A DNA stretch of 64,000 nucleotides from Candidatus Latescibacterota bacterium (GCA_965208125.1 OZ242320.1:896001-960000); one strand, 5' to 3'. Numbered from the stretch's first letter, positions 29,995 to 50,616 are shown. Numbers and translations: made by a program. Notes: generated from the sequence alone by a model not told the origin.

Positions 29995-31344
29995 TCACCC
30001 CCCAAACCCCAGCGTCTCCAAAAGCGACAGACTCAAACTCTCCATTGCCGGCACTGTACCCACACCACCCAAAGACGACAGAGATGCCCAGGTCTCATAC
30101 CCGCCCTCCTGTGTCAATGCCTCATCTGTACACACATAACCGATATACCCATTCGCCAGACTCACCATCATCAACGGCGAAGCCGACGTCTGCGCCTTGA
30201 TCCGAAGGCCAGTCTCCACAAAAATCTCCCCCGGCAACGCCAGAATCGCCGCATCGCCCAATCGGATCGCCTGCACAGGTGCCGTCATCTGTTCGGGCAA
30301 CGCCGCCAACCGCTGGCACTGCCTGGCATACACACCTACCCGATCCTTCCGCACCGGTTGCCCCACCACCCAGCTAAATGGACCCTCCTCGTAATCGTAT
30401 CCACCTGCGAGAATCTGTTCGGCAATATCGAGATCCGTCTCTGTAATCACTTTTCTCGAAAATTCCAGCGTCCCCGTCATAGCCTCCAATACCAGTTCCT
30501 CATCCAAATCCATCAACTGAATCTCTGTCAAAACATGCCCTGCCAGAACATTTGCCATCCGCCGCGCTCTGGGGTGCCCTCGATCCCGCCAAATCCGCTC
30601 GCCACTATAATCGTTATTATTAATTTGTCCAGATGCTGCATTCCACAAAATCGGCACGCAGTTCCCACCCAGATAATGCCGCAACAAATTGAAAAATTGA
30701 CCAAAATAATCCGCCGACACCTCCCCGACACTGCCCGTTCCCACATAGTGCAGTGAAAAACTCGCCACCACTGAAATCGGCGTACCGTCCAACCCCTCCA
30801 CATACATCATCGCCAATTCCGGATCGATCTCTCCCATTGGCCGCACGAGATCCGGATTATTCAAACCCGGATTCATCCGCACCGTCCCATCCTTCATCAG
30901 CCAGCGCCGATAAAACGAAATACGATCCTCCATCACACTGGCAAACCCCGCCCGGGCAGGCTGCATTCTCTTAATAGCCAACGCCACGGCATCGGCCACT
31001 TTTAGCGGAAGCCATGTCGTATAACCCTCATCTTCACCCGTACCCAGAAGATTGCTCACCCCTGCCCCTGAATGCGTATGTGTCGCATTCACCATCACGC
31101 ACTCAGGAGATATCCCACACCGTTCTTGAATGCGAGCCTTCACGGCATTCGCAATCGCTTCTGGCACCGCAATCAAATCGCAGGTCACCATCGCAATCCT
31201 GACATCACCATTGTCGATCACCAGTGCCTTGGCCAGAAGCTCATCGTGAACATCCTCTCCGTATCGCGGATGAAAACTTCCCGGCATCGTAACCCCCAGC
31301 CAGGGTGTAATATTGGACGTAGCAGCCCCTGCTTGCAATTTCAT
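29995..31344 (-). CDS. neutral/alkaline ceramidase-like hydrolase
   Basis: AGAATSNITP, VHDEL, ATHTHSG, LPGEIF, LANGYIGY..GGYE. Confidence 0.8.
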   Translation of the reverse strand: MKLQAGAATSNITPWLGVTMPGSFHPRYGEDVHDELLAKALVIDNGDVRIAMVTCDLIAVPEAIANAVKARIQERCGISPECVMVNATHTHSGAGVSNLLGTGEDEGYTTWLPLKVADAVALAIKRMQPARAGFASVMEDRISFYRRWLMKDGTVRMNPGLNNPDLVRPMGEIDPELAMMYVEGLDGTPISVVASFSLHYVGTGSVGEVSADYFGQFFNLLRHYLGGNCVPILWNAASGQINNNDYSGERIWRDRGHPRARRMANVLAGHVLTEIQLMDLDEELVLEAMTGTLEFSRKVITETDLDIAEQILAGGYDYEEGPFSWVVGQPVRKDRVGVYARQCQRLAALPEQMTAPVQAIRLGDAAILALPGEIFVETGLRIKAQTSASPLMMVSLANGYIGYVCTDEALTQEGGYETWASLSSLGGVGTVPAMESLSLSLLETLGFGG

Positions 31345-31427
31345 AACGCTCCTCCCGTGTTTAGATTTTACATCTTTTTTATTATATAATGGAAACAGGG
31401 CGTTTTGTCGAATAAAGCTCAATGCGG

Positions 31428-32505: not shown

Positions 32506-32964
32506 ATGCCGTCAAACTACACCATTGCAAAAGAACTGAAGCGAGTGGCGGATTACCGTGAAATATGCGGTGAGGATCCAGCAGATTATCTCAATGCCGC
32601 CTGGATGGTCCAGTCGTTTTCACGCGGCAGGCTGGACGAGTTATACCCGGTTGAAGGCAGGGAGCTACTGGAACGCACAAACGAGTTTAGCGACGAGGTG
32701 ATAGACACAATCGTCGAAATCATTGAAGGCAAAGAGATCCACGCGTTGCAAGAGCGGCAGGGCGTTCCTTTGACCGTGCTGGAATTGATCGAGATTCGGG
32801 GGATCGGTGGCAAAATGGCCAGGCACCTTTTTAGCGAACTGGGCGTGGTTGATTTGCAGGGCTTGCGGGCTGTTGTCGTGAACGGACAAATCAGCCAGAT
32901 AAAGGGCTTCAGGACAAAGACCATAGAAAAAATCACCGCTTTTCTGGACGAAAAAGGGGTGTAG
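32506..32964 (+). CDS. stand-alone helix-hairpin-helix protein resembling the PolX N-terminal region
   Basis: N..IA..L..AD..EI.GED, LLEIRGIGGK, IKGF..KT.EKI. Confidence 0.7.
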   Translation: MPSNYTIAKELKRVADYREICGEDPADYLNAAWMVQSFSRGRLDELYPVEGRELLERTNEFSDEVIDTIVEIIEGKEIHALQERQGVPLTVLELIEIRGIGGKMARHLFSELGVVDLQGLRAVVVNGQISQIKGFRTKTIEKITAFLDEKGV

Positions 32965-33049
32965 ATTTATTTGTCTGGGGATATATACTTTATTATATAT
33001 AATAAGTCACACATCTTAAAATCCCACCTCTCCCTACGAGGACTGCGCT

Positions 33050-35356
33050 ATGGCGATCAAAAAAGAAGACTATTTGGGAATTGAAAATTACAAAGTAGTA
33101 GGCACGCGACCGATAAGGCACGATGGAACCGATAAAGTAACGGGCCGCGCGGTGTATGGACCAGACTTTCATCTGACCGGATCGCTATACGGCAAAACAC
33201 TGCGAAGTCCTCATGGCCACGCGCGGATCAAATCCATCGACACCAGCAAAGCCGAAGCACTCCCCGGAGTAAAAGCCATCGTACTCGGCAAAGACCTCGT
33301 TCAAAATTACGAAGACAAAGTCTCCGACCTCGGTGAGGGATCGGTCGATCTGCGATTCTTAATTGCCAATGTACTCGCCGGAGACAAAGTCCTCTACGAC
33401 GGACACGCCATCGCAGCCGTAGCAGCCACCTCTGCACACATCGCAGAAGAGGCATTAAACCTGATCGACGTAGAATACGAAATACTCGAACCCGTACTCG
33501 AAGTCCGCCGCGCAATGGAAGACGATGCACCGTTATTGCACGACGACTTAAAAATGAAATCCCTCGGCGAAGAAACGGACCAGGCGAGCAACATCGCAAA
33601 TCACTTCCAGCACAAACAGGGAGATATAGAAAAGGGATTTGAAGAAGCGGACATAGTCATAGAGCGGGAATTTGCGACCGGAACAGTACATCAGGGATAC
33701 ATCGAACCGCACAACGTAACCGCGCACTGGAGCGAAAACGGAAAGCTCACAATATGGTGCAGTACACAGGGACCATTTGAAGTGCGCGGCCAGGTCGCCG
33801 ATGTACTCGGCCTCGAAGTGGGCGACATACGCGTCATCCCGCAGGAAATTGGGGGCGGATTTGGCGGAAAATTCCGCGTCTATGAAGAACCGACCGCAGC
33901 CCTATTGGCGCAAAAAACCGGAAAACCCGTCAAAATGGTCATGTCCCGCACAGAAGTATTAAAAGCCACCGGACCAACGCCCGCATCCTACATCAAAGTC
34001 AAAATGGGCGCAACGCGGGACGGCATGCTAACCGCGGCACAAGCCTACATGGCCTATGAAGCCGGAGCCTATCCCGGCTCTGCCGTAGGCGCTGGTGCGG
34101 GATGTATCTTCTCGCCCTACAGCATCCCAAACTCCCTCATCGACGGCTACGACGTCGTCGTAAACAAACCCCAATCGTCCGCCTACCGCGCGCCCGGCGC
34201 GACCAATGCGGCATTTGCATCTGAAACAGTAATAGACGAAATATGTGAGCAGATCGGAATAGACCCGCTCGAATTTCGACTGAAAAACGCGTCCAAAGAA
34301 GGCACGCGACGGGCAGACGGACCGGTCTTCTTGCGCATCGGTCAAGAAGAAGTCGTCAAAGCTGCCATGGCGCATCCGCACTACAGCGCGCCCCTTGAAG
34401 GACCGAATCGGGGACGCGGCGTCGCCGCCGGATTCTGGTTCAACGGCGGAGGCACATCAACAGTGGTCGCCAGCGTAAACCCGGACGGCACAGTAGCACT
34501 CGTCGAAGGCTCGCCCGATATTGGAGGGACGCGCACCTCAGTAGCCATACAATTCGCCGAAGTTCTGAATCTACCCATCGAAGACATCAAACCAAATGTC
34601 GCAGACACCGACGCAATCGGACAAACCGATGGAACGGGTGGAAGCCGCGTAACATTCGCAACCGGCTGGGCGAGCTATGAAGCCGCTCAAGATGTCAAGC
34701 GCCAGATGATAGAACGGGCGGCGACATTATGGGAAATATCAAAAGACGACATAGTCTTTGAAGACGGAACCTTCCGCTCCAAATCGGACGCATCCAAATC
34801 GATGACATTCAAAGAACTCGCCGGCAAAGTCAATCGCGCAGGCGGTCCGGTCGTAGGACGCGCTGCCATAAGTGGCAAGCAAGCCGGCCCGGCATTCGCG
34901 CTATTAATCGTAGATGTCGAAGTAGATCCAGACACGGGCAAAGTGGATATCTTGCGGGCGACCATTGTACAGGACGCGGGCAAAGCCATTTATCCCGGCT
35001 ATGTAGAAGGGCAGATGCAGGGCGGCGTGGTACAGGGAATCGGATGGGCATTGAACGAGGAATTTGTGTACAACGACCAGGGCGTAATGGTCAACGCCTC
35101 CTTCCTGGATTATCGGATGCCCACAACACTCGACATGCCGATGATAGAAACCGTCATCGTAGAAGTGCCCAACCCGGGTCATCCATACGGGGTACGCGGT
35201 GTGGGCGAAGTGCCAATTGTCCCGCCGCCAGCCGCAGTTGCCAATGCGATCTATCGCGCTGTTGGCATACGGCTAAATGAGTTGCCCATGTCCCCATCGC
35301 GAGTCCTGAAAGCACTCTGGGAATCAGATGGTAGCCATGGTCAGGCAGCGGATTGA
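33050..35356 (+). CDS. xanthine dehydrogenase/CoxL-family molybdopterin-binding subunit
   Basis: KVTGRAVY, HQGYIEP, IGGGFGGK, AYRAPG, EGQMQGGVVQGIG, GVRGVGE. Confidence 0.93.
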   Translation: MAIKKEDYLGIENYKVVGTRPIRHDGTDKVTGRAVYGPDFHLTGSLYGKTLRSPHGHARIKSIDTSKAEALPGVKAIVLGKDLVQNYEDKVSDLGEGSVDLRFLIANVLAGDKVLYDGHAIAAVAATSAHIAEEALNLIDVEYEILEPVLEVRRAMEDDAPLLHDDLKMKSLGEETDQASNIANHFQHKQGDIEKGFEEADIVIEREFATGTVHQGYIEPHNVTAHWSENGKLTIWCSTQGPFEVRGQVADVLGLEVGDIRVIPQEIGGGFGGKFRVYEEPTAALLAQKTGKPVKMVMSRTEVLKATGPTPASYIKVKMGATRDGMLTAAQAYMAYEAGAYPGSAVGAGAGCIFSPYSIPNSLIDGYDVVVNKPQSSAYRAPGATNAAFASETVIDEICEQIGIDPLEFRLKNASKEGTRRADGPVFLRIGQEEVVKAAMAHPHYSAPLEGPNRGRGVAAGFWFNGGGTSTVVASVNPDGTVALVEGSPDIGGTRTSVAIQFAEVLNLPIEDIKPNVADTDAIGQTDGTGGSRVTFATGWASYEAAQDVKRQMIERAATLWEISKDDIVFEDGTFRSKSDASKSMTFKELAGKVNRAGGPVVGRAAISGKQAGPAFALLIVDVEVDPDTGKVDILRATIVQDAGKAIYPGYVEGQMQGGVVQGIGWALNEEFVYNDQGVMVNASFLDYRMPTTLDMPMIETVIVEVPNPGHPYGVRGVGEVPIVPPPAAVANAIYRAVGIRLNELPMSPSRVLKALWESDGSHGQAAD

Positions 35357-35373
35357 TCAGATAGGAAAACACA

Positions 35374-35748
35374 ATGGACTGGTTCTCCCAATACGGATTT
35401 CTCGGTGCTCTGCTTCTCTCGGGCATCGTTCTCGGTGCAATCCCCGTCGTACTGCCCTTAATCATATCCCCTCGTGCGCGCGGTCGCAAAAGCCGCGAGA
35501 CCTACGAATGCGGCATGGACACAATCGGCAGTGCCTGGGTGCGCTTCGACATCGCTTATTATCTATTTGCACTCATCTTTGTCGCGTTTGAAGTCGATGT
35601 ACTGTATATTCTTCCCATCGCCGTAATCTACGATTCAGGCACCTACGTCTGGCGCGACTTCATCGAACTCACAATCTTCGTCGGCATTCTTTTTCTCGCC
35701 ATCGTGTACGCCTGGAGCAAAGGCGTTTTGCACTGGAGAAGTCGATAA
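35374..35748 (+). CDS. nuoA: complex I subunit A
   Basis: [24 protein letters not shown]. Confidence 0.95.
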
Positions 35749-36281
35749 TGGAACAAATAGAACTCCCTCTCGTGAAAAGCGATCCCAAAGACATTGAAGA
35801 ACTGCGCGAAGAGGTCGGCCCACTGGTACACATGGACCTGCTGGAAAACCTGCTCAATCACGCCCGGTCCCGATCCCTGTGGCCCCTCACATTCGGCCTG
35901 GCCTGTTGCGCCATCGAAATGATGGCCGCAGGCGCAGCGCGCTTTGACCTCGACCGCATTGGCGCAGGCGTATTTCGTCCCAGTGCGCGACAAGCCGATG
36001 TCATGATCCTCGCAGGCACAATCTCCCGCAAAATGGCACCAGCCATCAAAACGCTCTGGGATCAGATGCCCTCGCCCAAGTGGGCCATAGCCATGGGCGG
36101 TTGCACCATTGACGGCGGTCCCTTTAAATATCCCGGGCAATATGCCATTGTCGAAGGCGCTGACAAAATTGTACCAGTTGATGTGTACGTACCGGGTTGC
36201 CCTCCGCGCCCCGAAGCCCTCTTTGCGGCACTGTTCAAACTCGAAGAAAAAATCAGAGCCGGAAAGAAATTCAAGAAATGA
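35748..36281 (+). CDS. nuoB: complex I subunit B
   Basis: [27 protein letters not shown]. Confidence 0.96.
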
Positions 36282-36739
36282 TCGCCGACAAACTCTCTAC
36301 GCTCGTGCTCAACGCGACCGAGGTCGAATACAATGCGCGTGGCTTTCAGGTACAATACACCGCTTCAGCCGACACGCTCCCTCAGATCGCAGATACCTTC
36401 CTATCCGAAAATTTTCACCTCGAAATGATAACCTGTCAGGATCGACGTGAAGACGACAAAACTTTTCGCCTGATCTATCAGTTTAACCAATACGGCGCTC
36501 CCCAACGGCATATCATCCACACCGACATAGTACCCGATGCAACAGCACCCAGTATTGCCACAATTTTTCCCGCTGCCGACTGGTACGAACGCGAAATTTT
36601 CGACATGTATGGCGTCACCTTTGACGGCCACCCCGATTTGAAACGCATCTTAATGGAAGAAGACTATTTTGGTCATCCCCTGCTCAAAGACTTCGTCGAT
36701 CCCCCCAATCCCTATCGCAGCGAGGACGATGCGTCATGA
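36278..36739 (+). CDS. nuoC: complex I subunit C
   Basis: [29 protein letters not shown]; ATGA overlap with nuoB. Confidence 0.93.
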
Positions 36740-37863
36740 ATCGATTTGAGGTCGAACAAGATCCTAAAAGTCGAGATACCTATTATCTCAACATGGGGCC
36801 TCAGCATCCCTCTACACACGGCGTCATGCGGATCAAATTACACCTGGATGGCGAACGCATAATTTCGGCAGAACCCATCATCGGATATGGGCATCGCGCA
36901 CACGAAAAAATGGCCGAAAACCGCGACTACATCCAGTTTTTGCCCAACCCGAGCCGCGTGGATTATCTCGGCGGGATGATCTACAACGTGGGCTACTGCC
37001 AGGCCGTAGAGCGCGCAATGGACATCGAAGTGCCAGAACGCGCCGAATACATCCGCATCATCTGCAATGAACTCAACCGCATCTCCAGCCACCTGCTCTG
37101 GTTGGGCACCTTTTTGATGGATCTGGGCGCATTTACCCCATTTCTTTACGCCTTTGACGACCGCGAAAAAATCCTCGACATCCTCGACCGCATCACAGGA
37201 TCGCGCCTCACCTATTGTTACGCGCGATTTGGCGGCGTCATTCTCGACATCGACGATGTATTCCTCGACAACGTCTCCAACTTTTGCACCTACTTTGTCG
37301 AACGCTTAAAAGAATACGAAAAACTCGTCATCGGCAACGTCATCTTCCGCGAACGCACCATCGGCGTCGGTATCTTCGCCCCCGACCTCGTTCAAAAATA
37401 CGCCATAACAGGTCCCTGTCTGCGCGCCATGGGCCATGAACACGATGTTCGCAAAGACGAACCCTATGGCATCTACGACCGCTTTGACTTTGACGTACCC
37501 ACGCAAACAGAAGGCGACTGTTTTGCCCGCACACTCGTCCGCATGGAAGAAATGCGCCAGAGCATTCGCATCATCGAACAAGCTGTAAGCGACCTGCCCG
37601 ACGGTCTCTTTCTCGCAGCCCGGGTGCCCAGACGCATCCGCCCGCCCGAAGGCGATTACTACTTCTGTGTCGAATCACCTCGAGGCAACTTCGGCATGTA
37701 CATCGCAAGCGATGGCAGCGACATCCCCTTTCGCCTCAAATTGCGAACCCCATCGTTTTCACACATCTCGACCATGCCCGCCGTCATGACCGGCACCATG
37801 CTCGCCGATGCTGTAGCTATTCTGGGCAGCATCGACATTGTCGTTCCCGAAATAGACAGATAA
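36736..37863 (+). CDS. nuoD: complex I subunit D
   Basis: NMGPQHPSTHGV, ELNRISSH, ESPRG, ending EIDR; no NiFe CxxC motifs. Confidence 0.96.
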   Translation: MNRFEVEQDPKSRDTYYLNMGPQHPSTHGVMRIKLHLDGERIISAEPIIGYGHRAHEKMAENRDYIQFLPNPSRVDYLGGMIYNVGYCQAVERAMDIEVPERAEYIRIICNELNRISSHLLWLGTFLMDLGAFTPFLYAFDDREKILDILDRITGSRLTYCYARFGGVILDIDDVFLDNVSNFCTYFVERLKEYEKLVIGNVIFRERTIGVGIFAPDLVQKYAITGPCLRAMGHEHDVRKDEPYGIYDRFDFDVPTQTEGDCFARTLVRMEEMRQSIRIIEQAVSDLPDGLFLAARVPRRIRPPEGDYYFCVESPRGNFGMYIASDGSDIPFRLKLRTPSFSHISTMPAVMTGTMLADAVAILGSIDIVVPEIDR

Positions 37864-37870
37864 CGCACTT

Positions 37871-38845
37871 ATGAAAACAGACGTCATCCAACTCTTTGAA
37901 AACCCCTATCTCGCACTCGGTGTAACCATTGCCGTCATCATGGCCTATTTGAGCGTCAACGCCATCATGTTGATCTGGCTCGAACGCAAACTCAGCGCGC
38001 GCATACAGCGCCGCATTGGCCCGCAACGCGGACCCTTTGGCCTGATGCAGCAAATTTTTGACATGGGCAAATTGCTCAGCAAAGAACTCCTCACCCCCGA
38101 ACACGCCAACAAACTGCTCTATGTCATCGCGCCCATCCTGGTCTTTGCACCCGTGGTCGCCCTCTCGTCTCTCTTTCCCATTACGAGCACCTACATATTC
38201 CACGACTTCAACATCGCCATTGTCCTGATCCTCGCCATCAGCGGCATCAACGTAATCGGCATATTCTTAGCGGGCTGGGGATCCAATAACAAATACGCCC
38301 TGCTCGGCGCAGTGCGCTCAGTCGCGCAAAATATCTCCTACGAAATCCCCCTCATCCTATCGGTCATCCCCGTAGTCATGATAACCCGCACCATGTCGCT
38401 CTACGACATCACCCTCGCACAGGAAACCTATCCCTTTATACTGGTACAACCCATTGCCCTGATCATCTTTATCATATCAGCCACAGCCGAAACCAACCGC
38501 GCCCCCTTTGACATCCCCGAAGCAGAATCCGAACTCGTCGCCGGATTCCACACCGAATATTCCGGCATGCGCTTCGGACTGTTCTTCTTTGCCGAATACT
38601 CCAACATGATCTTTGCATGCGCATTGGCAACCGTGCTCTTCCTGGGGGGATGGCGCGGACCTCTCTTGCCAGACGCCGTATGGTTCTTCATCAAAGTCTA
38701 TGCACTCATCGTCCTCATGATGTGGTTCCGCTGGACTTTTCCGCGGCTCCGTTTTGACCAACTCATGAAATTCGCCTGGGTGGTACTCGTCCCCCTCTCG
38801 CTGATCAACCTGCTAATCACAACACTGGTCTTGAAAATCGTGTAA
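37871..38845 (+). CDS. nuoH: complex I subunit H
   Basis: ERK..ARIQRRIGP, SNNKY, ISYE, ETNRAPFD.PEAESELVAG. Confidence 0.96.
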   Translation: MKTDVIQLFENPYLALGVTIAVIMAYLSVNAIMLIWLERKLSARIQRRIGPQRGPFGLMQQIFDMGKLLSKELLTPEHANKLLYVIAPILVFAPVVALSSLFPITSTYIFHDFNIAIVLILAISGINVIGIFLAGWGSNNKYALLGAVRSVAQNISYEIPLILSVIPVVMITRTMSLYDITLAQETYPFILVQPIALIIFIISATAETNRAPFDIPEAESELVAGFHTEYSGMRFGLFFFAEYSNMIFACALATVLFLGGWRGPLLPDAVWFFIKVYALIVLMMWFRWTFPRLRFDQLMKFAWVVLVPLSLINLLITTLVLKIV

Positions 38846-38929
38846 AAGCTTTCAGCAGTCAGCGGTCAGCAAAACAAGCGGTTAGCTGATCGCTACTTCA
38901 TCAGTAGTTACCTTCAGAAGGAAATACAC

Positions 38930-39469
38930 ATGGGACTTATTAAGGAAGTCATCGACGGCACCAAAACGCTCCTGACCGGCATGAAAGTCACACTGGACAA
39001 CTTTCGCAAACCGCCCGTCACCTCCCAATACCCCATGGAAAAAATCGAGATGACGGAAGCGTTCCGCAATGTCATTGTCCTCATCGAAAAAGAAGACATC
39101 GGCTCGCACGACTGCATCGACTGCAAACTCTGTGAGCGCGTGTGTCCCTCCTTCTGCATTTACCTCGACGGGGAACGCCCTGAAGGGTTAAGGCGCAAAC
39201 GCTCGACCAAATTCGAAGTCGATTTCGCCCTGTGCAGCGACTGCGGACTGTGCTTAGACGTATGCCCCACAGACACCCTGGGATACAGCAAAGTCCACGA
39301 CGAAGCCGGATACAACCGCAGCGACTTTCTCTACGACTTACTCGAACCCTGGGCAGACAAAGAAGAAGCCGCGCGCGAACGCCTGAAAGAAATCGAAGCC
39401 GAACAAGCAGCAGAACGCGCAAGAAAAGCCGCAGCAAGAAAAGCTAAAAAGGTAAGAAGGAAGAAGTGA
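38930..39469 (+). CDS. nuoI: complex I subunit I (2x[4Fe-4S])
   Basis: CIDCKLCERVCP and CSDCGLCLDVCP. Confidence 0.93.
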   Translation: MGLIKEVIDGTKTLLTGMKVTLDNFRKPPVTSQYPMEKIEMTEAFRNVIVLIEKEDIGSHDCIDCKLCERVCPSFCIYLDGERPEGLRRKRSTKFEVDFALCSDCGLCLDVCPTDTLGYSKVHDEAGYNRSDFLYDLLEPWADKEEAARERLKEIEAEQAAERARKAAARKAKKVRRKK

Positions 39470-39472
39470 AAT

Positions 39473-39535
39473 CCACGAAGGGCACGAAGGGACACGAAGG
39501 GATAGAATGTAGGGGCGATCCCTTGTGGTCGCCCT
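39473..39535. repeat. short tandem repeat plus GTAG-type REP palindrome
   Basis: CACGAAGGG x3, then GTAGGGGCGATCCCTTGTGGTCGCCCT. Confidence 0.7.
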
Positions 39536-39577
39536 TGTTTAAGATACAAGAAGTGTGAAGTAATTCGGAGAACAACA

Positions 39578-40090
39578 ATGCTCGAACAGACTGCCATCTA
39601 CACATTTGTAGCCCTCGTCCTCATCGGTGGGGGCCTCGCGGCATTCTCTCGCCAGATACTCTATGCCATCATCGGCCTGGGCATCAGTCTCTTAGGGCTG
39701 GCGGGACTATTTCTCAACCTCGGCAGTCCATTTGTCGCGGCAATGCAAGTACTCATCTACATCGGCGGCATAACCGTCGCCATTGTATTTGCCATGATGC
39801 TCTCGATAGCCATGTCCATTCGCCCGCCCGATCCCGACAACCGAAAACTCGGCTTCGCCATTGCCTGTGCCGTCATATTTTTTGGCGCAGTCGCCCATCT
39901 AATCCGCGGCGCGCAATTCCAACAAATCGCGCCCCAGACATCTGAAAAAGCCTGGTCTGTGGGTGCATTGGGCCATGCACTGCTCACGCATTACAACGTC
40001 GTCTTTGAAGCCCTCTCCCTCGTTTTGCTCCTGGCCATCATCGGTGCCATCTTGATAGCTCGCAAGGCTTTGCCAAAGGAAAATTCGTGA
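39578..40090 (+). CDS. nuoJ: complex I subunit J
   Basis: AAMQVLIYIGGI, FEALSLVLLLAIIGAI. Confidence 0.93.
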   Translation: MLEQTAIYTFVALVLIGGGLAAFSRQILYAIIGLGISLLGLAGLFLNLGSPFVAAMQVLIYIGGITVAIVFAMMLSIAMSIRPPDPDNRKLGFAIACAVIFFGAVAHLIRGAQFQQIAPQTSEKAWSVGALGHALLTHYNVVFEALSLVLLLAIIGAILIARKALPKENS

Positions 40091-40392
40091 CCCTCGAATC
40101 CTATCTTCTGGTGGGCGCAGCCCTGTTTTCACTTGGTTTGATCGGCGCATTATCCCATCGCAACCTCATAGCCCTGCTCATCGGCATCGAACTCATGATG
40201 AACGCCGCCAGCCTAAACCTCATGGCCTTTAACCGGTTTGTCGTCACCGATCCAACGACCGGCCAGGTCTTCGTCCTCATCATCATTGGGCTGGCAGCCG
40301 CCGAAGTCGCCATCTTTTTATCGATCATCCTGCGCATCTATCGGGCGTATCACGAGATAGATGCGGAAAAACTCACCAAACTGAGCGGTTGA
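40087..40392 (+). CDS. nuoK: complex I subunit K
   Basis: IELMMNA, AAAEVAI. Confidence 0.95.
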   Translation: MTLESYLLVGAALFSLGLIGALSHRNLIALLIGIELMMNAASLNLMAFNRFVVTDPTTGQVFVLIIIGLAAAEVAIFLSIILRIYRAYHEIDAEKLTKLSG

Positions 40393-42215
40393 TGGACACT
40401 CTCTCACTCATACTCTTAACCACAATCTCCCCTCTGGCGTGTTTTATCATTGCCATCATCTTTCTCGTACAACAACCCCGAATAGCTCAGGGATTGGTCC
40501 TATGCGGCAGCGCCGTATCCCTCTTGAGTGCCATTGGCCTTCTCGTACAGGGACCCGTTGAACCCCTGCGATTTTTGTGGTTTCAAAGCGGTGCAATACA
40601 ACTCCAATTCGGCTTCATCCTCGATGGTCCAAGCCTCATGTTTGGCGTCGTCGTCGCCTTCATCACCGCCTGCATCATGCTCTATTCAGTAGGCTACATG
40701 GCGCATGACCCGGGCAAAACGCGCTATTTCGCAATGCTCAGCTTCTTTGCCTGGTCCATGCTCAGCTTTGTCTATGCTGTCGATCTCTTGCAATCTTTCA
40801 TCTTTTGGGAACTCGTTGGCCTGTCTTCGTTCTTCCTCATCGGTTTCTGGTTTGAAAAACCCGAAGCGGCTGGCGCAGCGCGCAAAGCCTTTCTCATGAC
40901 CCGCGTGGGCGACGTTGGCCTCTTCATCGGCATTCTGCTCATCCTCCAACTCGTTTCAAACTTCGATATCCCCACACTCTTAGACCCTCAAACTGGCCTC
41001 TCAACACAGATATCGCCCAACCTGCTCAACGCAATCACACTACTCATCTTCATCGGCATCATGGGCAAAAGCGCGCAATTCCCATTGCACACCTGGCTGC
41101 CCGACGCCATGGAAGGCCCCACACCGGTCAGCGCCCTATTGCACTCTGCCACCATGGTCGCCGCGGGCGTCTTTCTCATGATCCGCCTACATCCGCTCTT
41201 TATGGCGGCACAAGACACAGCACTCATCGTCCTGAGCATCGCCACCTTCACCGCAATTCTCGCATCAACCATTGCAATGGTCGATACCGACATCAAAAAA
41301 GTACTCGCCTACTCGTCCATCAGCCAGCTCGGCTTCATGCTCATGGCACTCGCTGCTGGCAGCCTCTTCGCAGGTGTATTTCACCTGATCACCCACGCCT
41401 TTTTCAAAGCCCTGCTCTTCCTCTGCTCGGGCATTTACATTCACGCCTATCACACCAATAGCATGGCCGAAATTGGCCGCAGTGGAGGCCGCCGCCTCAA
41501 AGCTACAACCCTTGGCCTCCTCATCGGTGGTGCTGCCCTATCGGGCGTTCCCCCACTGGCGGGATTCTGGAGCAAAGAAGAAATTTTTGCCCAACTCGGT
41601 CACAATGGCTTTAACATCTACATGGCCGGTGCATTTCTCGCGGCATTTCTCACGGCCTATTACACATTCCGCATGATTTTCCTCATCACAAAACCCGATC
41701 ACGCACCAGCCACCGACCACAGCCATCCCGAACCTATGAACATGAGAGCACCCGTCTTGCTCCTCGCCCTGGGCGCAATAGTACTCGGCTTTTTCGGCTC
41801 CAACATCGCTCAGGGCCTGGGCCTCATGCCACAACACCACAGCGTCCTGTTGATGATCCCCACCGTAGGCGTCGTCATCCTCGGCATTCTGATCGCCTAT
41901 CTCGACTATGGACGCGACAATGCGCCGCGCACGGGATTCATCAGCAAAATCGCGCCACTCAATACCCTGTTCACAAACAAATGGTACATCGACGAAGTCT
42001 ATCGCGTCACCATCGTCGCCATCACACACGCACTATCTCGCATCTTGCACTGGATAGAAAACCACGTCCTCGACGGAAACTACGACCGCTTTGGCCTCGG
42101 CATCTTGCGCACAGGCGCGAAATCAACCCGCGTACAGGGCGGCTGGATGCAACTCTATCTGGGCTGGGCGATCATCTTATTGGCCGTAGTCGCGCTTTAT
42201 CTGGGATTGCAATAA
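40392..42215 (+). CDS. nuoL: complex I subunit L
   Basis: WELVG..S, GKSAQFPLHTWLPDAMEGPTPVSALLH, HAFFKALLF. Confidence 0.96.
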   Translation: MDTLSLILLTTISPLACFIIAIIFLVQQPRIAQGLVLCGSAVSLLSAIGLLVQGPVEPLRFLWFQSGAIQLQFGFILDGPSLMFGVVVAFITACIMLYSVGYMAHDPGKTRYFAMLSFFAWSMLSFVYAVDLLQSFIFWELVGLSSFFLIGFWFEKPEAAGAARKAFLMTRVGDVGLFIGILLILQLVSNFDIPTLLDPQTGLSTQISPNLLNAITLLIFIGIMGKSAQFPLHTWLPDAMEGPTPVSALLHSATMVAAGVFLMIRLHPLFMAAQDTALIVLSIATFTAILASTIAMVDTDIKKVLAYSSISQLGFMLMALAAGSLFAGVFHLITHAFFKALLFLCSGIYIHAYHTNSMAEIGRSGGRRLKATTLGLLIGGAALSGVPPLAGFWSKEEIFAQLGHNGFNIYMAGAFLAAFLTAYYTFRMIFLITKPDHAPATDHSHPEPMNMRAPVLLLALGAIVLGFFGSNIAQGLGLMPQHHSVLLMIPTVGVVILGILIAYLDYGRDNAPRTGFISKIAPLNTLFTNKWYIDEVYRVTIVAITHALSRILHWIENHVLDGNYDRFGLGILRTGAKSTRVQGGWMQLYLGWAIILLAVVALYLGLQ

Positions 42216-42218
42216 AAA

Positions 42219-43694
42219 ATGCCTCTTCTCTCATCCATACTTCTCACCCCCGTCATCACCCTCATCATCCTTTTGCTCATGCCCCAAAAAGCCGTGCGGG
42301 GCATTCGGCTGATCTGCGCCCTCAGTGGCCTGTTGACCTGTGTGCTGAGTTTGCAACTCTGGATAAGCTATGATCCCACAATCGGCGGTATTCAATTTGA
42401 AGAAATAATCCCCTGGGTCGCAGTCATTGGCATCTCCTATCATCTCGGCGTTGACGGATTTGGCGTCATCCTCGTCATGCTCAACGCCATAGTCTATTTC
42501 ACCGGGGTGCTCACCATGTGGGACCTCGAAGACCGCGTAAAAGAATATTTCGCCTTCATGGTACTCCTCGTCATCGGCGTCTTCGGCGTCTTCATGTCGC
42601 TGGACCTCTTCTTCTTCTTCTTCTTTTACGAAATCGCCGTCGTCCCCATGTATCCCCTCATCCTGATATGGGGCAGCGGCAACAGAGCTTATGCTGGCAT
42701 GAAACTCATGCTCTTCCTCCTCGCCGGTAGCGCACTCCTCTTTCCCGGCCTACTCGCCATCTATCACCACGCGGGCCTCAACACCTTTGACATCATTGCC
42801 CTATCCGCACACACATTCGATCCCCAATTCCAAATATTTGTCTATCCCTTCATCTACATTGGCTTTGGCGTCTTAGCCGGCCTGTTTCCGTTCCACGGAT
42901 GGTCGCCCACAGGCCACGTTGCCGCGCCATCTGCTGTTTCCATGCTACACGCGGGCGTCCTGATGAAACTCGGCGCATTTGGCATACTCACAGTCGGCAT
43001 CCGCCTGCTGCCCGAAGGCGCTGCGTACTGGGCACCGACCTTTGTGGTATTGGCCGTCATAGGAATCATCTACGGTGCTTATGTCGCCATGCGGCAGACC
43101 GACTTCAAATTTGTCATCGGCTTTTCATCTGTATCTCACATGGGCATTGTCCTCCTCGGCCTCAACCTCGCAATCCTCGGCCAGGTCGTTGCAACCGACG
43201 CCCTCAACGGCGCAGTCTTCCAGATGTTTGCCCACGGCATCATGACCGCCCTATTTTTCAGCACCGCGGGATATATCTACGACAAATCCCACTCCAAAAC
43301 CATTGGCGACTTTGGCGGTCTTGGCAAGCAGATGCCCCGCGCAGTCTCCATCTTTATCGTCGCGGGCCTGTGTGGCGCCGGGTTGCCTGGCCTAGCGAGC
43401 TTTTGGGCTGAATTACTCGTCTTTCTCGCCGCTTTGAAAACATACCCCATCGCCGGCATCATCGTCATCCTCGGTCTCGTACTCACCGCAGTTTACATTT
43501 TGCGCGTCTTCAACCTGGCCTTTTTTGGCGCACCAAATCCGAAATGGGAAAATCTGAAAGCACAGGACATGTCTGGCCTGCACCTGATACCGCGCGCCAT
43601 ACTAATCGCCGTACTCGTAATCTTCGGCTTTGTACCCCGCCTCATGCTCGACCTGATCAACAGCACGACAATAGCTTTCTTGGGTAATTTCTAA
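42219..43694 (+). CDS. nuoM: complex I subunit M
   Basis: LGVDG, FFYE..VPMY, FPFHGW, LMKLG, SSVSHMG. Confidence 0.95.
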   Translation: MPLLSSILLTPVITLIILLLMPQKAVRGIRLICALSGLLTCVLSLQLWISYDPTIGGIQFEEIIPWVAVIGISYHLGVDGFGVILVMLNAIVYFTGVLTMWDLEDRVKEYFAFMVLLVIGVFGVFMSLDLFFFFFFYEIAVVPMYPLILIWGSGNRAYAGMKLMLFLLAGSALLFPGLLAIYHHAGLNTFDIIALSAHTFDPQFQIFVYPFIYIGFGVLAGLFPFHGWSPTGHVAAPSAVSMLHAGVLMKLGAFGILTVGIRLLPEGAAYWAPTFVVLAVIGIIYGAYVAMRQTDFKFVIGFSSVSHMGIVLLGLNLAILGQVVATDALNGAVFQMFAHGIMTALFFSTAGYIYDKSHSKTIGDFGGLGKQMPRAVSIFIVAGLCGAGLPGLASFWAELLVFLAALKTYPIAGIIVILGLVLTAVYILRVFNLAFFGAPNPKWENLKAQDMSGLHLIPRAILIAVLVIFGFVPRLMLDLINSTTIAFLGNF

Positions 43695-43695
43695 C

Positions 43696-45120
43696 ATGGA
43701 AAACGCTATCCTCTTCGCACCAGAACTTATTTGCCTGATCATGGGCCTCGTGCTCTTTTTTGCCACAGTGCTCAACTGGTCCTATCGCACCACCCGGGGC
43801 ATTGCCATAGCATCCGGCATAGCCATGATCGCCGCCTGTCTCTGGACCCTACCCCTTGAAGGCGAACCCTTCTTCCCTGGCATATACGCGGTTGACTTCT
43901 TTTCTCAACTGATCAAAACAGCACTCGCTGTCGGATTCTTATTTGTCGTCATCGCCAGCGCCAACCCCCTCACAGTTGACCGCAATGGTTGGCTCGAAGT
44001 CCCCCTCTTCTTCATCTTTTCCACACTCGGCATGATGATGATGGTCAGCGCGACCGAACTCCTCACCCTCTATGTCGCTATGGAACTGGCCGCCTATCCC
44101 GTCTATATCGTCGTTGCCCTTCACCGCAATTCGGACATCGGTGGGGAAAGCGCCGCCAAATACATGGTACAGGGCATGGCAGCCTCGGCCATCTCGCTCT
44201 ACGGCATGAGCTTTCTCTTCGGCACATTTGGCTCCACCTACTTCTCTGCCATCAGCATCCCACACGCCGCCGCGCAACCCATCTTCTACCTGGGCCTATT
44301 GCTCACACTCGCTGGCTTCTTCTTCAAACTCGGCGCATTCCCCTTCCACTTTTGGGCACCCGACACCTATGAAACCGCGCCCCATCCCATCATCACATTC
44401 ATCGCCACTGTTTCCAAAATCGCCGCCATAGGCATCCTCTGCCGCCTGTTATCCCTCGCCATGCCCGGTGGCTGGGAATCGGGCCACGCCCAAACCGCGC
44501 TCATGTGGGCAAGCGTCATCGCAATGAGCCTGGGCAACCTGGCCGCACTCGCACAAAAAGACCTCAAACGCCTGCTCGGATATTCCACAGTCGCCCACGC
44601 CGGTTACGTACTCCTCGCCCTGCAAACCTTCGCCGAATGGGGTCTTACTGCTGCCCTATTTTACGCCATTGGCTACTTTGCCATGTCTTTTGCGTGCTTC
44701 CTCGTCATCTGTGAAATCGGTCGCAGCGAAGACCGCATCACCATCGAATCCGTATCTGGCCTTTACAAACGCGCCCCCTTCTTCTCCTTCACCTTGCTCA
44801 TCGGCCTGTTTGGCCTCATAGGCCTCCCCCCCACAGTGGGTTTTGTCGGCAAATGGTTCCTCTTCTCCGCCGCCCTCCAGCGCGGACAATTCTATCTCGT
44901 CCTCGTCGCAGCCATCAACGCCGCGGTCGCCCTGTATTATTATCTCCTCATCATCCGCCAACTCTACTGGGTAGAACCCGCCACACAGAACACCATCAAA
45001 CCCACGCCCCTCATCGCCGTCACCGCAATGGCGACCATCACCCTCGTAATCGCAATGGGCACGCTCCCCGGTCCCTTCTGGGACATGGCTGCACGCGCCG
45101 TCCGCGCGCTAATCAGTTGA
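43696..45120 (+). CDS. nuoN: complex I subunit N
   Basis: ESAAKY, FKLGAFPFHFWAPDTYE, KRLLGYSTVAHAGY, GLPPTVGFVGK. Confidence 0.95.
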   Translation: MENAILFAPELICLIMGLVLFFATVLNWSYRTTRGIAIASGIAMIAACLWTLPLEGEPFFPGIYAVDFFSQLIKTALAVGFLFVVIASANPLTVDRNGWLEVPLFFIFSTLGMMMMVSATELLTLYVAMELAAYPVYIVVALHRNSDIGGESAAKYMVQGMAASAISLYGMSFLFGTFGSTYFSAISIPHAAAQPIFYLGLLLTLAGFFFKLGAFPFHFWAPDTYETAPHPIITFIATVSKIAAIGILCRLLSLAMPGGWESGHAQTALMWASVIAMSLGNLAALAQKDLKRLLGYSTVAHAGYVLLALQTFAEWGLTAALFYAIGYFAMSFACFLVICEIGRSEDRITIESVSGLYKRAPFFSFTLLIGLFGLIGLPPTVGFVGKWFLFSAALQRGQFYLVLVAAINAAVALYYYLLIIRQLYWVEPATQNTIKPTPLIAVTAMATITLVIAMGTLPGPFWDMAARAVRALIS

Positions 45121-47356: not shown

Positions 47357-48517
47357 ATGCCTATCCAACTGCCCATATATCTCGACAACAACGCCACCAC
47401 TCCTGTAGATGAACGGGTACTCAACGCGATGTTGCCCTATCTCAAAGATCGCTTTGGCAATGCCGCCAGCCGCACACACGCCTTTGGGTGGCATGCCGAA
47501 GATGCTGTTGATCTGGCGCGTGAACAAATAGCCAGCCTCATCAACGCACAGCCCAAAGACATCGTCTTCACCAGTGGCGCCACAGAATCCGACAACCTCG
47601 CCATCAAAGGCGTGGTAGCCGCAGCCACCAACGCGCACATCATCACGCAAGCCACTGAACACCACGCCGTCCTCGACTCTTGCCGCGCGCTGGAACGCGA
47701 TGGCGTCTCAGTCACAATCTTGCCCGTAGATTCACACGGTATTACCGACCCATCAGACATTGCAAACGCCATCACAGACAACACCGCACTCGTCTCCATC
47801 ATGGCGGCCAACAACGAAATCGGCACCTGCCAGGCCATTGAAGAAATCGGAACGATTTGCCATGAAAAAAACATCTACTTTCACACAGATGCTGCACAGG
47901 CCATTGGCAAATACCCGCTTGACGTCGAAGCCATGCACATCGACCTGCTCTCCATCTCCGCCCACAAACTCTATGGACCCAAAGGCGCGGGCGCGCTCTA
48001 TGTGCGCAGCCGTCCGCGCGTTCGCCTCGTCGGCCAAATAGACGGCGGGGGCCATGAAAAGGGCATGCGCTCTGGCACCCTCAATGTACCGGGCATTGTA
48101 GGCATGGGAGAAGCCTGCGCACTTGCACAAAAACACATCGAAACCGAAGCAAAACACAGCCAAAAATTGCGCCATCGCCTGCAAAAACACCTCTTCAACG
48201 CGCTGCCCCAAATACAACTCAACGGCCATCCCGAACAACGCCTTTCGGGCAACCTCAACATCAGCTTTGCCGGCGTGGATGGCGAAAGCCTGCTCATGAG
48301 CTTACAAGACGTAGCCCTCTCATCCGGCTCGGCGTGTACATCCGCCTCTCTCGAACCATCCTATGTACTCAAAGCCATCGGCGTCAGCAATGACATGGCA
48401 CAGTGCAGCATACGCTTTGGCATTGGCCGATTCAACACCAAAGCAGAAATTGACTATGTTGCAGAGCGCGTAATTCAAGAAGTCAATCGCCTTCGCGAAA
48501 TCTCGCCGAACTATTAA
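47357..48517 (+). CDS. iscS: cysteine desulfurase
   Basis: [30 protein letters not shown]. Confidence 0.95.
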
Positions 48518-48536
48518 ATTCATCCCCGGAGCCACC

Positions 48537-49346
48537 ATGCCAACACCAGACCGACCCCAACGCCCCGAAATCTTACCCGAAGTCAAAAACATCGTCGCAG
48601 TATCCAGCTGCAAAGGCGGCGTGGGAAAAACAACAGTTAGCGTAAACCTCGCGGTCTCACTCGCTAAACAGGGCGCAACGGTTGGCTTGCTCGACGCGGA
48701 TATTTACGGACCCAACGTACCGATTATGATGGGCAGCACAGCGCAACCCAGGTCAATAGGCCAAAAAATACTACCCCTTGAAAATCACAATGTCAAATTC
48801 ATGTCCCTCGGCCTCATCGCCGGAGAAAATGCCCCCATTATATGGCGCGGTCCCATCGTGGGCAGAATGATTCAGCAATTCATGGTTGACGTAATATGGG
48901 GCGCACTCGACTACCTCGTCGTCGATCTACCCCCCGGCACGGGCGATGCACAACTCACCCTTGCCCAAACCGTGCCACTCAGCGGTGCGGTCATTGTCAC
49001 AACCCCACAAAATGTCGCGTTGGAAGACGTACATCGCGGCATAGAAATGTTTCACAAAGTCGAAGTCCCCATCCTCGGCGTTGTCGAAAACATGAGCTAT
49101 TTCCTGTGCCCGTGTTGCGGAGACCGCACGCCCCTCTTCGGCGAAGGCGGAGGCCAACACATCGCCGATGCTTATGGCCTACCCCTGCTCGGACAAATCC
49201 CCATCCAGCCCAATATCCGCGAAGGTGGCGACATGGGTGCGCCCATTGCAACAGGTGAAAACAATGCTTTCCCCGAAATCGCCCGACGCATTGCCGACGC
49301 ACTGGCAGAAAGGGAAAGCGACCTGCCCGAAATCACAATCGTCTAA
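48537..49346 (+). CDS. mrp: Mrp/ApbC/NBP35 Fe-S carrier ATPase
   Basis: KGGVGKTT, DADIYGP, WRGP, DLPPGTGD, ENMS..CP.C. Confidence 0.93.
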   Translation: MPTPDRPQRPEILPEVKNIVAVSSCKGGVGKTTVSVNLAVSLAKQGATVGLLDADIYGPNVPIMMGSTAQPRSIGQKILPLENHNVKFMSLGLIAGENAPIIWRGPIVGRMIQQFMVDVIWGALDYLVVDLPPGTGDAQLTLAQTVPLSGAVIVTTPQNVALEDVHRGIEMFHKVEVPILGVVENMSYFLCPCCGDRTPLFGEGGGQHIADAYGLPLLGQIPIQPNIREGGDMGAPIATGENNAFPEIARRIADALAERESDLPEITIV

Positions 49347-49437
49347 CTTTTCGGGCTTGCGGATAGAAAAAAATACCTTACATTAAATTCCACCAAAATA
49401 ACTATTCGAAACCAAACACCAACCCGAAAGGCACGCC

Positions 49438-50616
49438 ATGAGTGCAACTTATGAAATGCTCGTCGGACAGGCAGAAGCCAGCACCACGGGACTCTCTCCA
49501 GAACGCGCACAGGAGAAAATCCATGCAAATGGCACGCTGCTCATAGACGTGCGCGAACGCGAAAATTATATCGAAGGATATATCCCCAGCGCAGAAAACG
49601 TGCCGCGTGGCTTTCTCGAACTCCGCATAGAAAGCATGGACAACGACCGCGACCGCGCAATCATAGTCTATGGTGCACGGGGCCAGGGCGCATTAGCCGC
49701 ACAGGCACTTCAAGACATGGGCTATTCCGACGTCGCATATATCCAGGGCGACATCGATTCCTGGAAAAACGCCGGTCTCGCCATTGACCGCGACCGCGCG
49801 CTCGACAAAGCCGAAGTACAGCGCTACTCCCGTCACCTCCTCATCCCCGAAGTGGGAGAACGCGGGCAGGGCAAACTCCTCGACGCCAGAGTACTGCTCA
49901 TCGGCGCAGGCGGATTGGGCAGCCCAACCGGACTTTATCTTGCCGCGACTGGCATTGGGACACTCGGAATCGTCGATGCCGACATCGTCGATGTTACCAA
50001 CTTGCAACGCCAGATACTACACGGCACATCTGACCTGGGTCGTCTCAAAGCCATCTCGGCTTACGAAACACTCAAAGAAATCAACCCCGGCTGTGATGTT
50101 GTGCCACACACCGACTATCTCACATCTGACAACATCATGGACATCCTCCCCGAATACGATATCATCGTCAACGGATGCGACAACTTCCCAACGCGCTATC
50201 TCGTCAACGATGCGTGTGTCTTCCTCAAAAAACCCATCGTGGATGGCAGCATCTTCCGCTTTGAAGGTCAGGTCACGGTGTACACATGCGACGGTGAGGG
50301 GCCTTGCTACCGCTGCCTCTATCCTGCGCCACCACCGGCAGACCTGGCACCATCGTGAGACGAAGCAGGCGTGCTGGGTGTTCTGCCCGGCACAGTTGGC
50401 CTCGTGCAGGCCACAGAAGTTGTCAAACTCATACTCGGTCAGGGGGATCCACTCATCGGTCGCTTACTGATGTACGACGCCCTGCAAATGAACTTCAACA
50501 CATTCAAAATTCGCCGCGATAAAAATTGCCCTGTATGCGGCGACAACCCAACCATCACCGAACTCATGGACTATCAGGCATTCTGCGCCATGGATCACAG
50601 CGACGCAGCGGATTAA
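49438..50616 (+). CDS. moeB: rhodanese-MoeB/ThiF E1-like adenylyltransferase (MoeZ-like), probable selenoprotein with UGA at 50356-50358
   Basis: RYSRH, GAGGLG, NLQRQ, CYRC, then APS-TGA-DEAGVLG continuing in frame to CPVC; 392 aa if read through. Confidence 0.85.
50371..50393 (+). other. candidate bacterial SECIS hairpin
   Basis: GTGCTGGG-TGTTCTG-CCCGGCAC stem-loop beginning 12 nt after the UGA, G near the start of the loop. Confidence 0.6.

Follow-up and report, generated by a model that had tools for sequence, protein, structure and literature searches.

A molybdenum-hydroxylase large-subunit gene, xdhL2, directly precedes the nuo operon of a Candidatus Latescibacterota bacterium in the stretch analyzed here, a 64,000-nucleotide (nt) window that corresponds to C1:896001-960000 of a 5.75-Mb single-contig genome (G+C content, 51%). 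The host genus of this locus consists of sponge-associated bacteria, and near-identical sequences from RNA runs carry the labels sponge, coral, or marine metagenome. We think it probable that XdhL2 is a conventional catalytic subunit whose gene was relocated and landed before an ordinary complex I operon without an NADH-input module (N-module), and that it uses in trans the flavin adenine dinucleotide (FAD) and 2Fe-2S subunits encoded at 4.89 Mb. An earlier, sequence-only reading of this DNA had proposed that the molybdoenzyme is the electron input of the complex. Its description of the junction is borne out by open reading frames (ORFs), direct sequence reading, and a consensus scan: the XDH/CoxL-family gene ends (TGA, 35354-35356) 17 nt before the nuoA ATG (35374) on the same strand, the gap holds AGGA, and no terminator-like site was found at the junction by the scan.

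Gene calls combine the ORF listing with Pfam profile matches, and all 11 nuo ORFs match their own Pfam family. The features of the locus are as follows:

32962..32989, + strand: promoter-like motif TAGATT-N16-TATACT in the AT-rich 85-nt gap 5′ of xdhL2 (putative function)
33050..35356, + strand: xdhL2, orphan XDH/CoxL-family molybdopterin-binding large subunit, 768 aa, three Pfam domains
35357..35373, + strand: 17-nt spacer with AGGA ribosome-binding site, from direct sequence reading
35374..35748, + strand: nuoA (PF00507, E 6e-29)
35748..36281, + strand: nuoB, presumptive N2 cluster subunit (PF01058; NF005012, 223 bits, cut-off 116)
36278..36739, + strand: nuoC (PF00329, E 4.4e-31), with the ATG at 36278 taken from the corresponding ORF of relatives (listed ORF from TTG 36197)
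36736..37863, + strand: nuoD, without NiFe-ligand cysteines (PF00346, E 1.2e-92; NF004739, 458 bits, cut-off 360)
37871..38845, + strand: nuoH (PF00146, E 1.6e-115)
38930..39469, + strand: nuoI, two 4Fe-4S motifs and a charged C-terminal tail (Fer4 families)
39578..40090, + strand: nuoJ (PF00499)
40087..40392, + strand: nuoK (PF00420)
40389..42215, + strand: nuoL (PF00361 and PF00662)
42219..43694, + strand: nuoM (PF00361)
43696..45120, + strand: nuoN (PF00361)

Identity and ancestry of xdhL2

XdhL2 matches Ald_Xan_dh_C (E 1.3e-26), MoCoBD_1 (7.3e-74), and MoCoBD_2 (1.2e-62), all above the Pfam cut-offs, and its closest solved structure is the alpha subunit of 4-hydroxybenzoyl-CoA reductase (1rm6_A, E 2.3e-92, residues 14-756). 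It scores under every NCBIfam equivalog cut-off: TIGR03194, for that alpha subunit, is the top family match without conferring membership (483.8 bits; cut-off, 994.55), and both profiles for CoxL of aerobic CO dehydrogenase fail (TIGR02416, 324.9 bits against 991.15; NF040766, 305.4 against 950). As the sequence-only reading had observed, the loop has AYRAPG (SSAYRAPGATN in full) rather than AYxCSFR or AYxGAGR, which we take to be the CoxL active-site motifs. In an alignment of 60 family sequences, GGGFGG (G268-G272) and E720 show no variation (60 of 60); E720, which aligns with a Glu of 1rm6_A, is presumably catalytic. From these sequence features we assign XdhL2 to the XDH-family large subunits and not to the CO dehydrogenases.

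Genes for 2Fe-2S and FAD subunits are not encoded alongside xdhL2, whose 5′ neighbors are pdxA and a gene for a helix-hairpin-helix protein. The sequence-only reading was right that such genes are not adjacent; coxS/M-like genes do lie elsewhere in the genome, three of each. In total the genome has five large (L), three 2Fe-2S (S; Fer2_2), and three FAD (M; FAD_binding_5) subunit genes, and every S/M pair adjoins one L gene. The profile matches are arranged as follows:

0.87 Mb: S-L-M cluster
4.876 Mb (G000:C1:4875225-4880049; L011, 5225-10049): S-L-M cluster with cytochrome b561
4.891 Mb: M-S-L1 cluster
Orphan L genes: xdhL2 in the window, and L3 at 5.26 Mb beside a ThiS/MoaD-like gene

The origin of this arrangement can be read from a synteny sample of 75 loci from public genomes. 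The 15 closest loci (95-99% identity) all have xdhL followed by nuoA-nuoI, and the 12 next closest (75-76% identity), which belong to a sister family and are in some cases labeled Gemmatimonadota, all have the order coxM-coxS-L1-L2-thiS, with the window gene matching L2. Related M-S-L-thiS-L operons are carried by Binatia, and simpler M-S-L(-thiS) forms by Planctomycetota and other groups. In a FastTree phylogeny of 118 large subunits (local support values only, with several long branches flagged), 16 nuo-linked genes form the sister group of the 12 L2 genes found in coxM-coxS-L1-L2-thiS operons (support, 100), and the L1 of those operons groups with the M-S-L gene of this genome. This placement identifies the window gene as the L2 of an ancestral operon that had two large subunits per FAD-iron-sulfur (FeS) pair. 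By the same comparison, that operon appears dispersed in this genus: M-S-L1 at 4.89 Mb, L3-thiS at 5.26 Mb, and L2 before nuoA.

With five L genes to three S and three M genes, and one S/M pair beside L1, L2 most likely borrows that pair. XdhL2 would then find its FAD and 2Fe-2S subunits in trans, as products of the genes next to its paralogue at 4.89 Mb. These are the same partners that L2 orthologues have in the sister-family operon, and the resulting enzyme would oxidize an organic substrate. The dN/dS of xdhL2 is 0.025-0.045 against ten genus members (dS, 0.19-0.38), compared with 0-0.068 for nuoA and 0.023-0.085 for nuoB, and the nuo-linked clade shows four clade-specific replacements at columns at least 95% conserved, where five other clades show one to eight. 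As judged from these values, L2 is under no altered constraint since its relocation, and it is most likely still an ordinary, functional large subunit.

Operons of the form coxM-coxS-L-thiS(MoaD-like)-L or coxM-coxS-L-L-thiS are widespread in Latescibacterota and Binatia (L059-L070, L076-L118; for example, L089, 4558-10933) and hold two or three paralogous large subunits per FAD-FeS pair, while single M-S-L-thiS forms occur in metagenome-assembled genomes of Planctomycetota and Methylomirabilota. As for the 4.876-Mb cluster, its FeS subunit has a long N terminus with a twin-arginine-like motif (SRRDFIKG) and the FAD_binding_5 match of its FAD subunit is stretched by ∼50 residues; this S-L-M-cytochrome b561 cluster may encode a membrane-linked, possibly periplasmic molybdenum hydroxylase.

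Reach and expression of the xdhL2-nuo unit

One Latescibacterota genus, represented by 21 genomes including ours, has nuoA directly after L2 in 17 of them. Eight genomes share the nuo type, with NuoB 86-94% identical, but have no L2 next to it: four members of this genus, three of genus g6, and one of genus g12. In the four genus members (G001, G010, G016, and G018; NuoA/B, 91-94% identical), no L2-type match of at least 70% was found among the matches listed, and nuoA is preceded by a ThsB-TIR gene, an alanine symporter gene, or small Pfam-less ORFs. In g6 and g12 (NuoB, 86-89%), nuo follows SpoU and PEMT-like genes or a PhyH gene, respectively. The genes just 5′ of nuoA in G016 and G018 encode ThsB-like TIR and DUF4276 proteins of defense-island type (L119, 1449-2343; L121, 1493-1960), in agreement with this spot being variable. 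The distribution across genera argues for a single origin of the nuo link, within one genus, and for L2 being a mobile-positioned gene. The sequence-only reading had staked its proposal on conserved synteny of this XDH clade with nuoA; an adjacency confined to 17 of 21 genomes of one genus and missing from eight others with the same nuo type is not conserved in that sense.

In genera g2 and g3, which belong to the same family, L2 (70-76% identity) is again an orphan. A gene for a thiamine pyrophosphate (TPP)-dependent enzyme lies directly upstream in three of four loci and a Gfo/Idh/MocA gene lies nearby in three of four; no FeS, FAD, thiS, or nuo genes were found within 6 kb. The L2 orthologue follows both kinds of gene on the same strand at L127 (9063-13265), L129 (9394-12178), and L130 (4388-6007), a catabolic context that might hint at the L2 substrate class. 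We considered and rejected the idea that a ceramidase-like gene in the window (29995-31422) is a remnant of the g2 ceramidase-like/Gfo/TPP/L2 cluster; paralogues of the g2 proteins encoded in this genome reach only 25-35% identity, and the ceramidase-like copy of the window is not among the matches (E up to 1e-20).

In 13 of 16 genus loci, a T[TA]GATT-N15/16-TATACT motif lies upstream of xdhL2 and ends 57-60 nt 5′ of its ATG, whichever gene precedes. From 33050 to 43433, the consensus scan detected no promoter-like site on the + strand, and the pattern TTGnnn-N16-18-TAnnnT is absent from the final 624 nt of xdhL2. Both length and sequence of the 17-nt spacer are kept in 14 of 15 related loci, the exception (L052) having ∼140 extra nt. 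In xdhL2-less genomes, a TTGCGA-N17-TATCAT-type motif lies 50-80 nt 5′ of nuoA, whereas nothing like it occurs upstream of the window nuoA, where that region is xdhL2 coding sequence. We asked whether xdhL2 had inserted behind the old nuo promoter and found no convincing alignment between the xdhL2 upstream region and the nuoA promoter regions of xdhL2-less genomes.

The junction is crossed by RNA contigs assembled from four metatranscriptome runs of three studies (X1, 34850-35414; X2, 34793-36306; X4, 35218-35954; X9, 35287-35522), and one contig, of 1,514 nt, starts within xdhL2, crosses nuoA, and runs into nuoB. Contigs of two studies start at 33010-33027, with lower depth upstream, a weak hint of a start site. 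Because assembled contigs cannot show transcript ends, prove one transcript, or exclude DNA carry-over, cotranscription is well supported rather than shown; xdhL2 and the nuo genes likely form one 12-gene transcription unit. One X9 contig omits 49 nt of the AT-rich gap 5′ of xdhL2 (window 32975-33025) and contigs of X1 and X4 diverge from the window sequence at 32975; thus, the junction upstream of xdhL2 varies among strains.

The nuo operon itself accepts foreign genes and tolerates splitting. Of 15 related loci, 7 have additional same-strand genes inserted between nuoD and nuoH: three encode WD40-repeat proteins of 833-852 aa (L052, 11029-13530; L054, 10992-13550; L056, 8338-10890), and four have small PIN or DUF4160/DUF2442 genes (L046, 10899-11997; L048, 10930-11521; L053, 10911-11936; L057, 10861-11593) that look like toxin-antitoxin pairs. 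In G001, G010, and G016, which lack the molybdenum gene, nuo is split, with nuoI (L133, L135, and L136) 0.1-2 Mb from nuoA/B. Given such inserts and splits, tight co-orientation in this operon is weak evidence for shared function.

We therefore have a picture in which the position before nuoA would be a lineage-specific rearrangement at a variable, insertion-prone spot, and xdhL2 a relocated yet functional molybdenum-hydroxylase gene heading a 12-gene unit with the sole nuo operon. Relocation would have displaced nuoA's own promoter, so that nuo would now be read from the promoter before xdhL2. The outcome would be coexpression of xdhL2 and nuo and not a physical electron-input module.

Several points weigh against this reading. 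The adjacency, the 17-nt spacing, and a gene under strong purifying selection persist across a synonymous divergence of 0.19-0.41, which exceeds what a fresh accident would show. Within the genus, L2 is only nuo-linked: it is present and linked in 17 of 17 genomes and absent in 4 of 4 among the matches listed. Sharing of the M/S pair in trans is deduced from ancestry and gene counts, and the RNA support consists of assembled contigs in which DNA carry-over is possible.

The strong selection on xdhL2 and its exclusive nuo linkage among those matches, together with the conserved operon structure and coexpression, would also suit a looser functional tie, which we regard as unlikely. XdhL2 with borrowed FAD and FeS subunits would in that case be a soluble dehydrogenase whose electrons reach the respiratory chain via a carrier or the quinone pool, with selection acting on co-regulation. 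Its nearest solved relative, 4-hydroxybenzoyl-CoA reductase, is a member of this family that exchanges electrons with ferredoxin, which favors such a tie. That ferredoxin-linked reductase has an extra FeS cluster, however, and the FAD subunit at 4.89 Mb matches FAD_binding_5 without an insertion (residues 12-181, profile 2-169) and so gives no sign of one. Genomes of the same nuo type also manage without L2, and unrelated genes are likewise carried in the nuo operon.

An 11-subunit complex I and its electron input

The sequence-only reading had described the operon as nuoABCD-HIJKLMN without the NADH-input module and as not encoding a group 4 hydrogenase; both descriptions hold. The genes nuoA, B, C, D, H, I, J, K, L, M, and N are contiguous and in this order from 35374 to 45120, all 11 Pfam families are in order, and nuoE/F/G are not in the operon. 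NuoD carries GPQHPSTHGV in its N-terminal and IVVPEIDR in its C-terminal part, and it lacks Cys pairs at either end, namely the two NiFe-binding pairs of group 4 [NiFe] hydrogenases; it passes NF004739 (458 bits against 360), and three antiporter-like subunits plus NuoA/J/K are present. The Cys motif of NuoB reads CCAIE...GGC...GCPP, and the 4Fe-4S motifs of NuoI read CIDCKLCERVCP and CSDCGLCLDVCP; we take these cysteines to be ligands of clusters N2 (NuoB) and N6a/N6b (NuoI). We classify the predicted enzyme with the known 11-subunit, N-module-less complex I-like type and not with the hydrogenases or the 14-subunit NADH:quinone oxidoreductases.

A search for stand-alone NuoEFG or a second nuo operon yielded neither. 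The genome has a single NuoD and thus only one nuo operon. Its only NuoF homologue (PF01512) is a 546-aa NuoE-NuoF fusion (G000:C1:2698567-2703016; L009, 8567-13016), followed 3′ by a NuoG-like N terminus, an in-frame TGA next to His (T-TGA-H-A-P-T-V-A-G), and formate dehydrogenase alpha, of which the part after the TGA alone scores 630 bits with TIGR01591. This cluster looks like a selenocysteine-containing, NAD-linked formate dehydrogenase. We considered it as a hidden N-module and judged that unlikely, given the selenocysteine-His motif, the formate dehydrogenase alpha match, and two genus members that lack it: the NuoF match is absent from G010 and G018, single contigs that are 97-98% complete and have the same nuo type. 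In contrast, some relatives, among them G035, G047, G051, and G026, have a NuoF of ∼445 aa less than 3 kb from NuoB.

With NuoEFG not available in the genome, the 17-nt gap, the single transcription unit, and the separation from FeS/FAD genes could be taken to mean that XdhL2 binds the NuoI/NuoCD face where NuoEFG would otherwise sit and delivers electrons of its molybdenum cofactor directly to N6a, giving a proton-pumping substrate:quinone oxidoreductase. We consider this direct input, which is what the sequence-only reading had suggested, very improbable. In XDH/CODH structures, the large subunit has no FeS cluster and electrons leave via the 2Fe-2S subunit. The adjacency is narrow and arose once, L2 orthologues reside in coxM-coxS-L1-L2 operons, constraint on L2 has not shifted since relocation, and the eight genomes of the same nuo type without the adjacency have closely similar NuoB proteins.

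The charged C-terminal tail of NuoI does not help the case. It is present as described earlier (∼40 aa; K/R/E-rich), but it is not special to this complex: it appears in the consensus of 84 homologues and also in L2-less genomes, four of the genus (query residues 1-178) and one of a sister genus (1-171), and so is not limited to L2-bearing genomes. A complex prediction for XdhL2 (60-row alignment) and NuoI (84-row alignment) gave scores of 0.00 and 0.00 and no answer; it counts neither way. In favor of direct input, passages of PMC11238625 treat the donor question of 11-subunit enzymes as unresolved (albeit with ferredoxin favored) and put forward a docking platform for various donors.

In keeping with relocation as the preferred reading, the nuo product would be a quinone reductase and proton pump whose donor is most likely a soluble low-potential carrier such as ferredoxin or flavodoxin, and Na+-NQR would deal with NADH. 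The genome has genes for Na+-NQR (NqrA, NqrD/E) and for a POR_N-type 2-oxoacid:ferredoxin oxidoreductase.

Relation to known systems

The locus has the 11 core genes of the enzymes known from Bacteroides fragilis/Prevotella, Desulfitobacterium hafniense, and cyanobacterial NDH-1, in identical order and likewise without NuoEFG; its NuoD is devoid of hydrogenase ligands, and its NuoB and NuoI have their FeS ligands. According to passages of PMC7002350, B. fragilis NUO has no nuoEFG and no NADH activity, its donor is unknown, and NQR and NDH-2 oxidize NADH; our genome, like that of B. fragilis, also has NQR. A difference is that an XDH-family large-subunit gene opens the operon in 17 of the 21 genomes from this genus. 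Neither such a neighbor nor another link between molybdenum hydroxylases and nuo is described in the titles, abstract openings, and some passages of the literature that we surveyed.

Alternative inputs of complex I include FpoF of F420H2 dehydrogenase and the NdhS/V/O ferredoxin site of NDH-1, modules that either contain FeS or flavin cofactors themselves or bind ferredoxin. The sequence-only reading invoked this concept, a non-NADH donor module on an 11-subunit core, but XdhL2 has a molybdenum cofactor only. Compared with three-subunit molybdenum hydroxylases (CoxSML-type; HcrABC, PDB 1rm6), XdhL2 matches over its full length with three Pfam domains, GGGFGG, and Glu720; it differs in being encoded apart from FeS/FAD subunits, in a genome with five L, three S, and three M genes, and in falling under all equivalog cut-offs. 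With respect to the sister-family coxM-coxS-L1-L2-thiS operons, the window gene is the L2 orthologue (75-76% identity), and the genes are dispersed in this genus.

Passages of PMC11238625 and PMC7002350 present the donor of bacterial 11-subunit complex I-like enzymes as a long-standing open question. A donor gene within the nuo operon would have made this question testable; our comparisons instead favor a relocated subunit on the nuo promoter. Direct input, if true, would be the first donor module identified for a bacterial N-module-less complex I besides the ferredoxin/F420 type. The locus is an example of how a tight, conserved, cotranscribed adjacency can be a lineage-specific accident where operons acquire foreign genes. 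The comparison also documents a molybdenum-hydroxylase family with, apparently, a single FAD-FeS gene pair serving two or three large-subunit genes, which is relevant to the numerous unexplained CoxL-like genes in sponge symbionts noted in part of PMC8941161.

Soon after nuoN, the window (47357-50358) encodes a class-V aminotransferase (cysteine desulfurase-like), an Mrp/NUBPL-type P-loop NTPase of the iron-transfer kind (PF10609, E 1.4e-98), and a MoeB/MOCS3-like rhodanese-ThiF fusion. These genes could serve FeS and possibly molybdenum cofactor maturation near an operon rich in both, or equally could be plain housekeeping genes.

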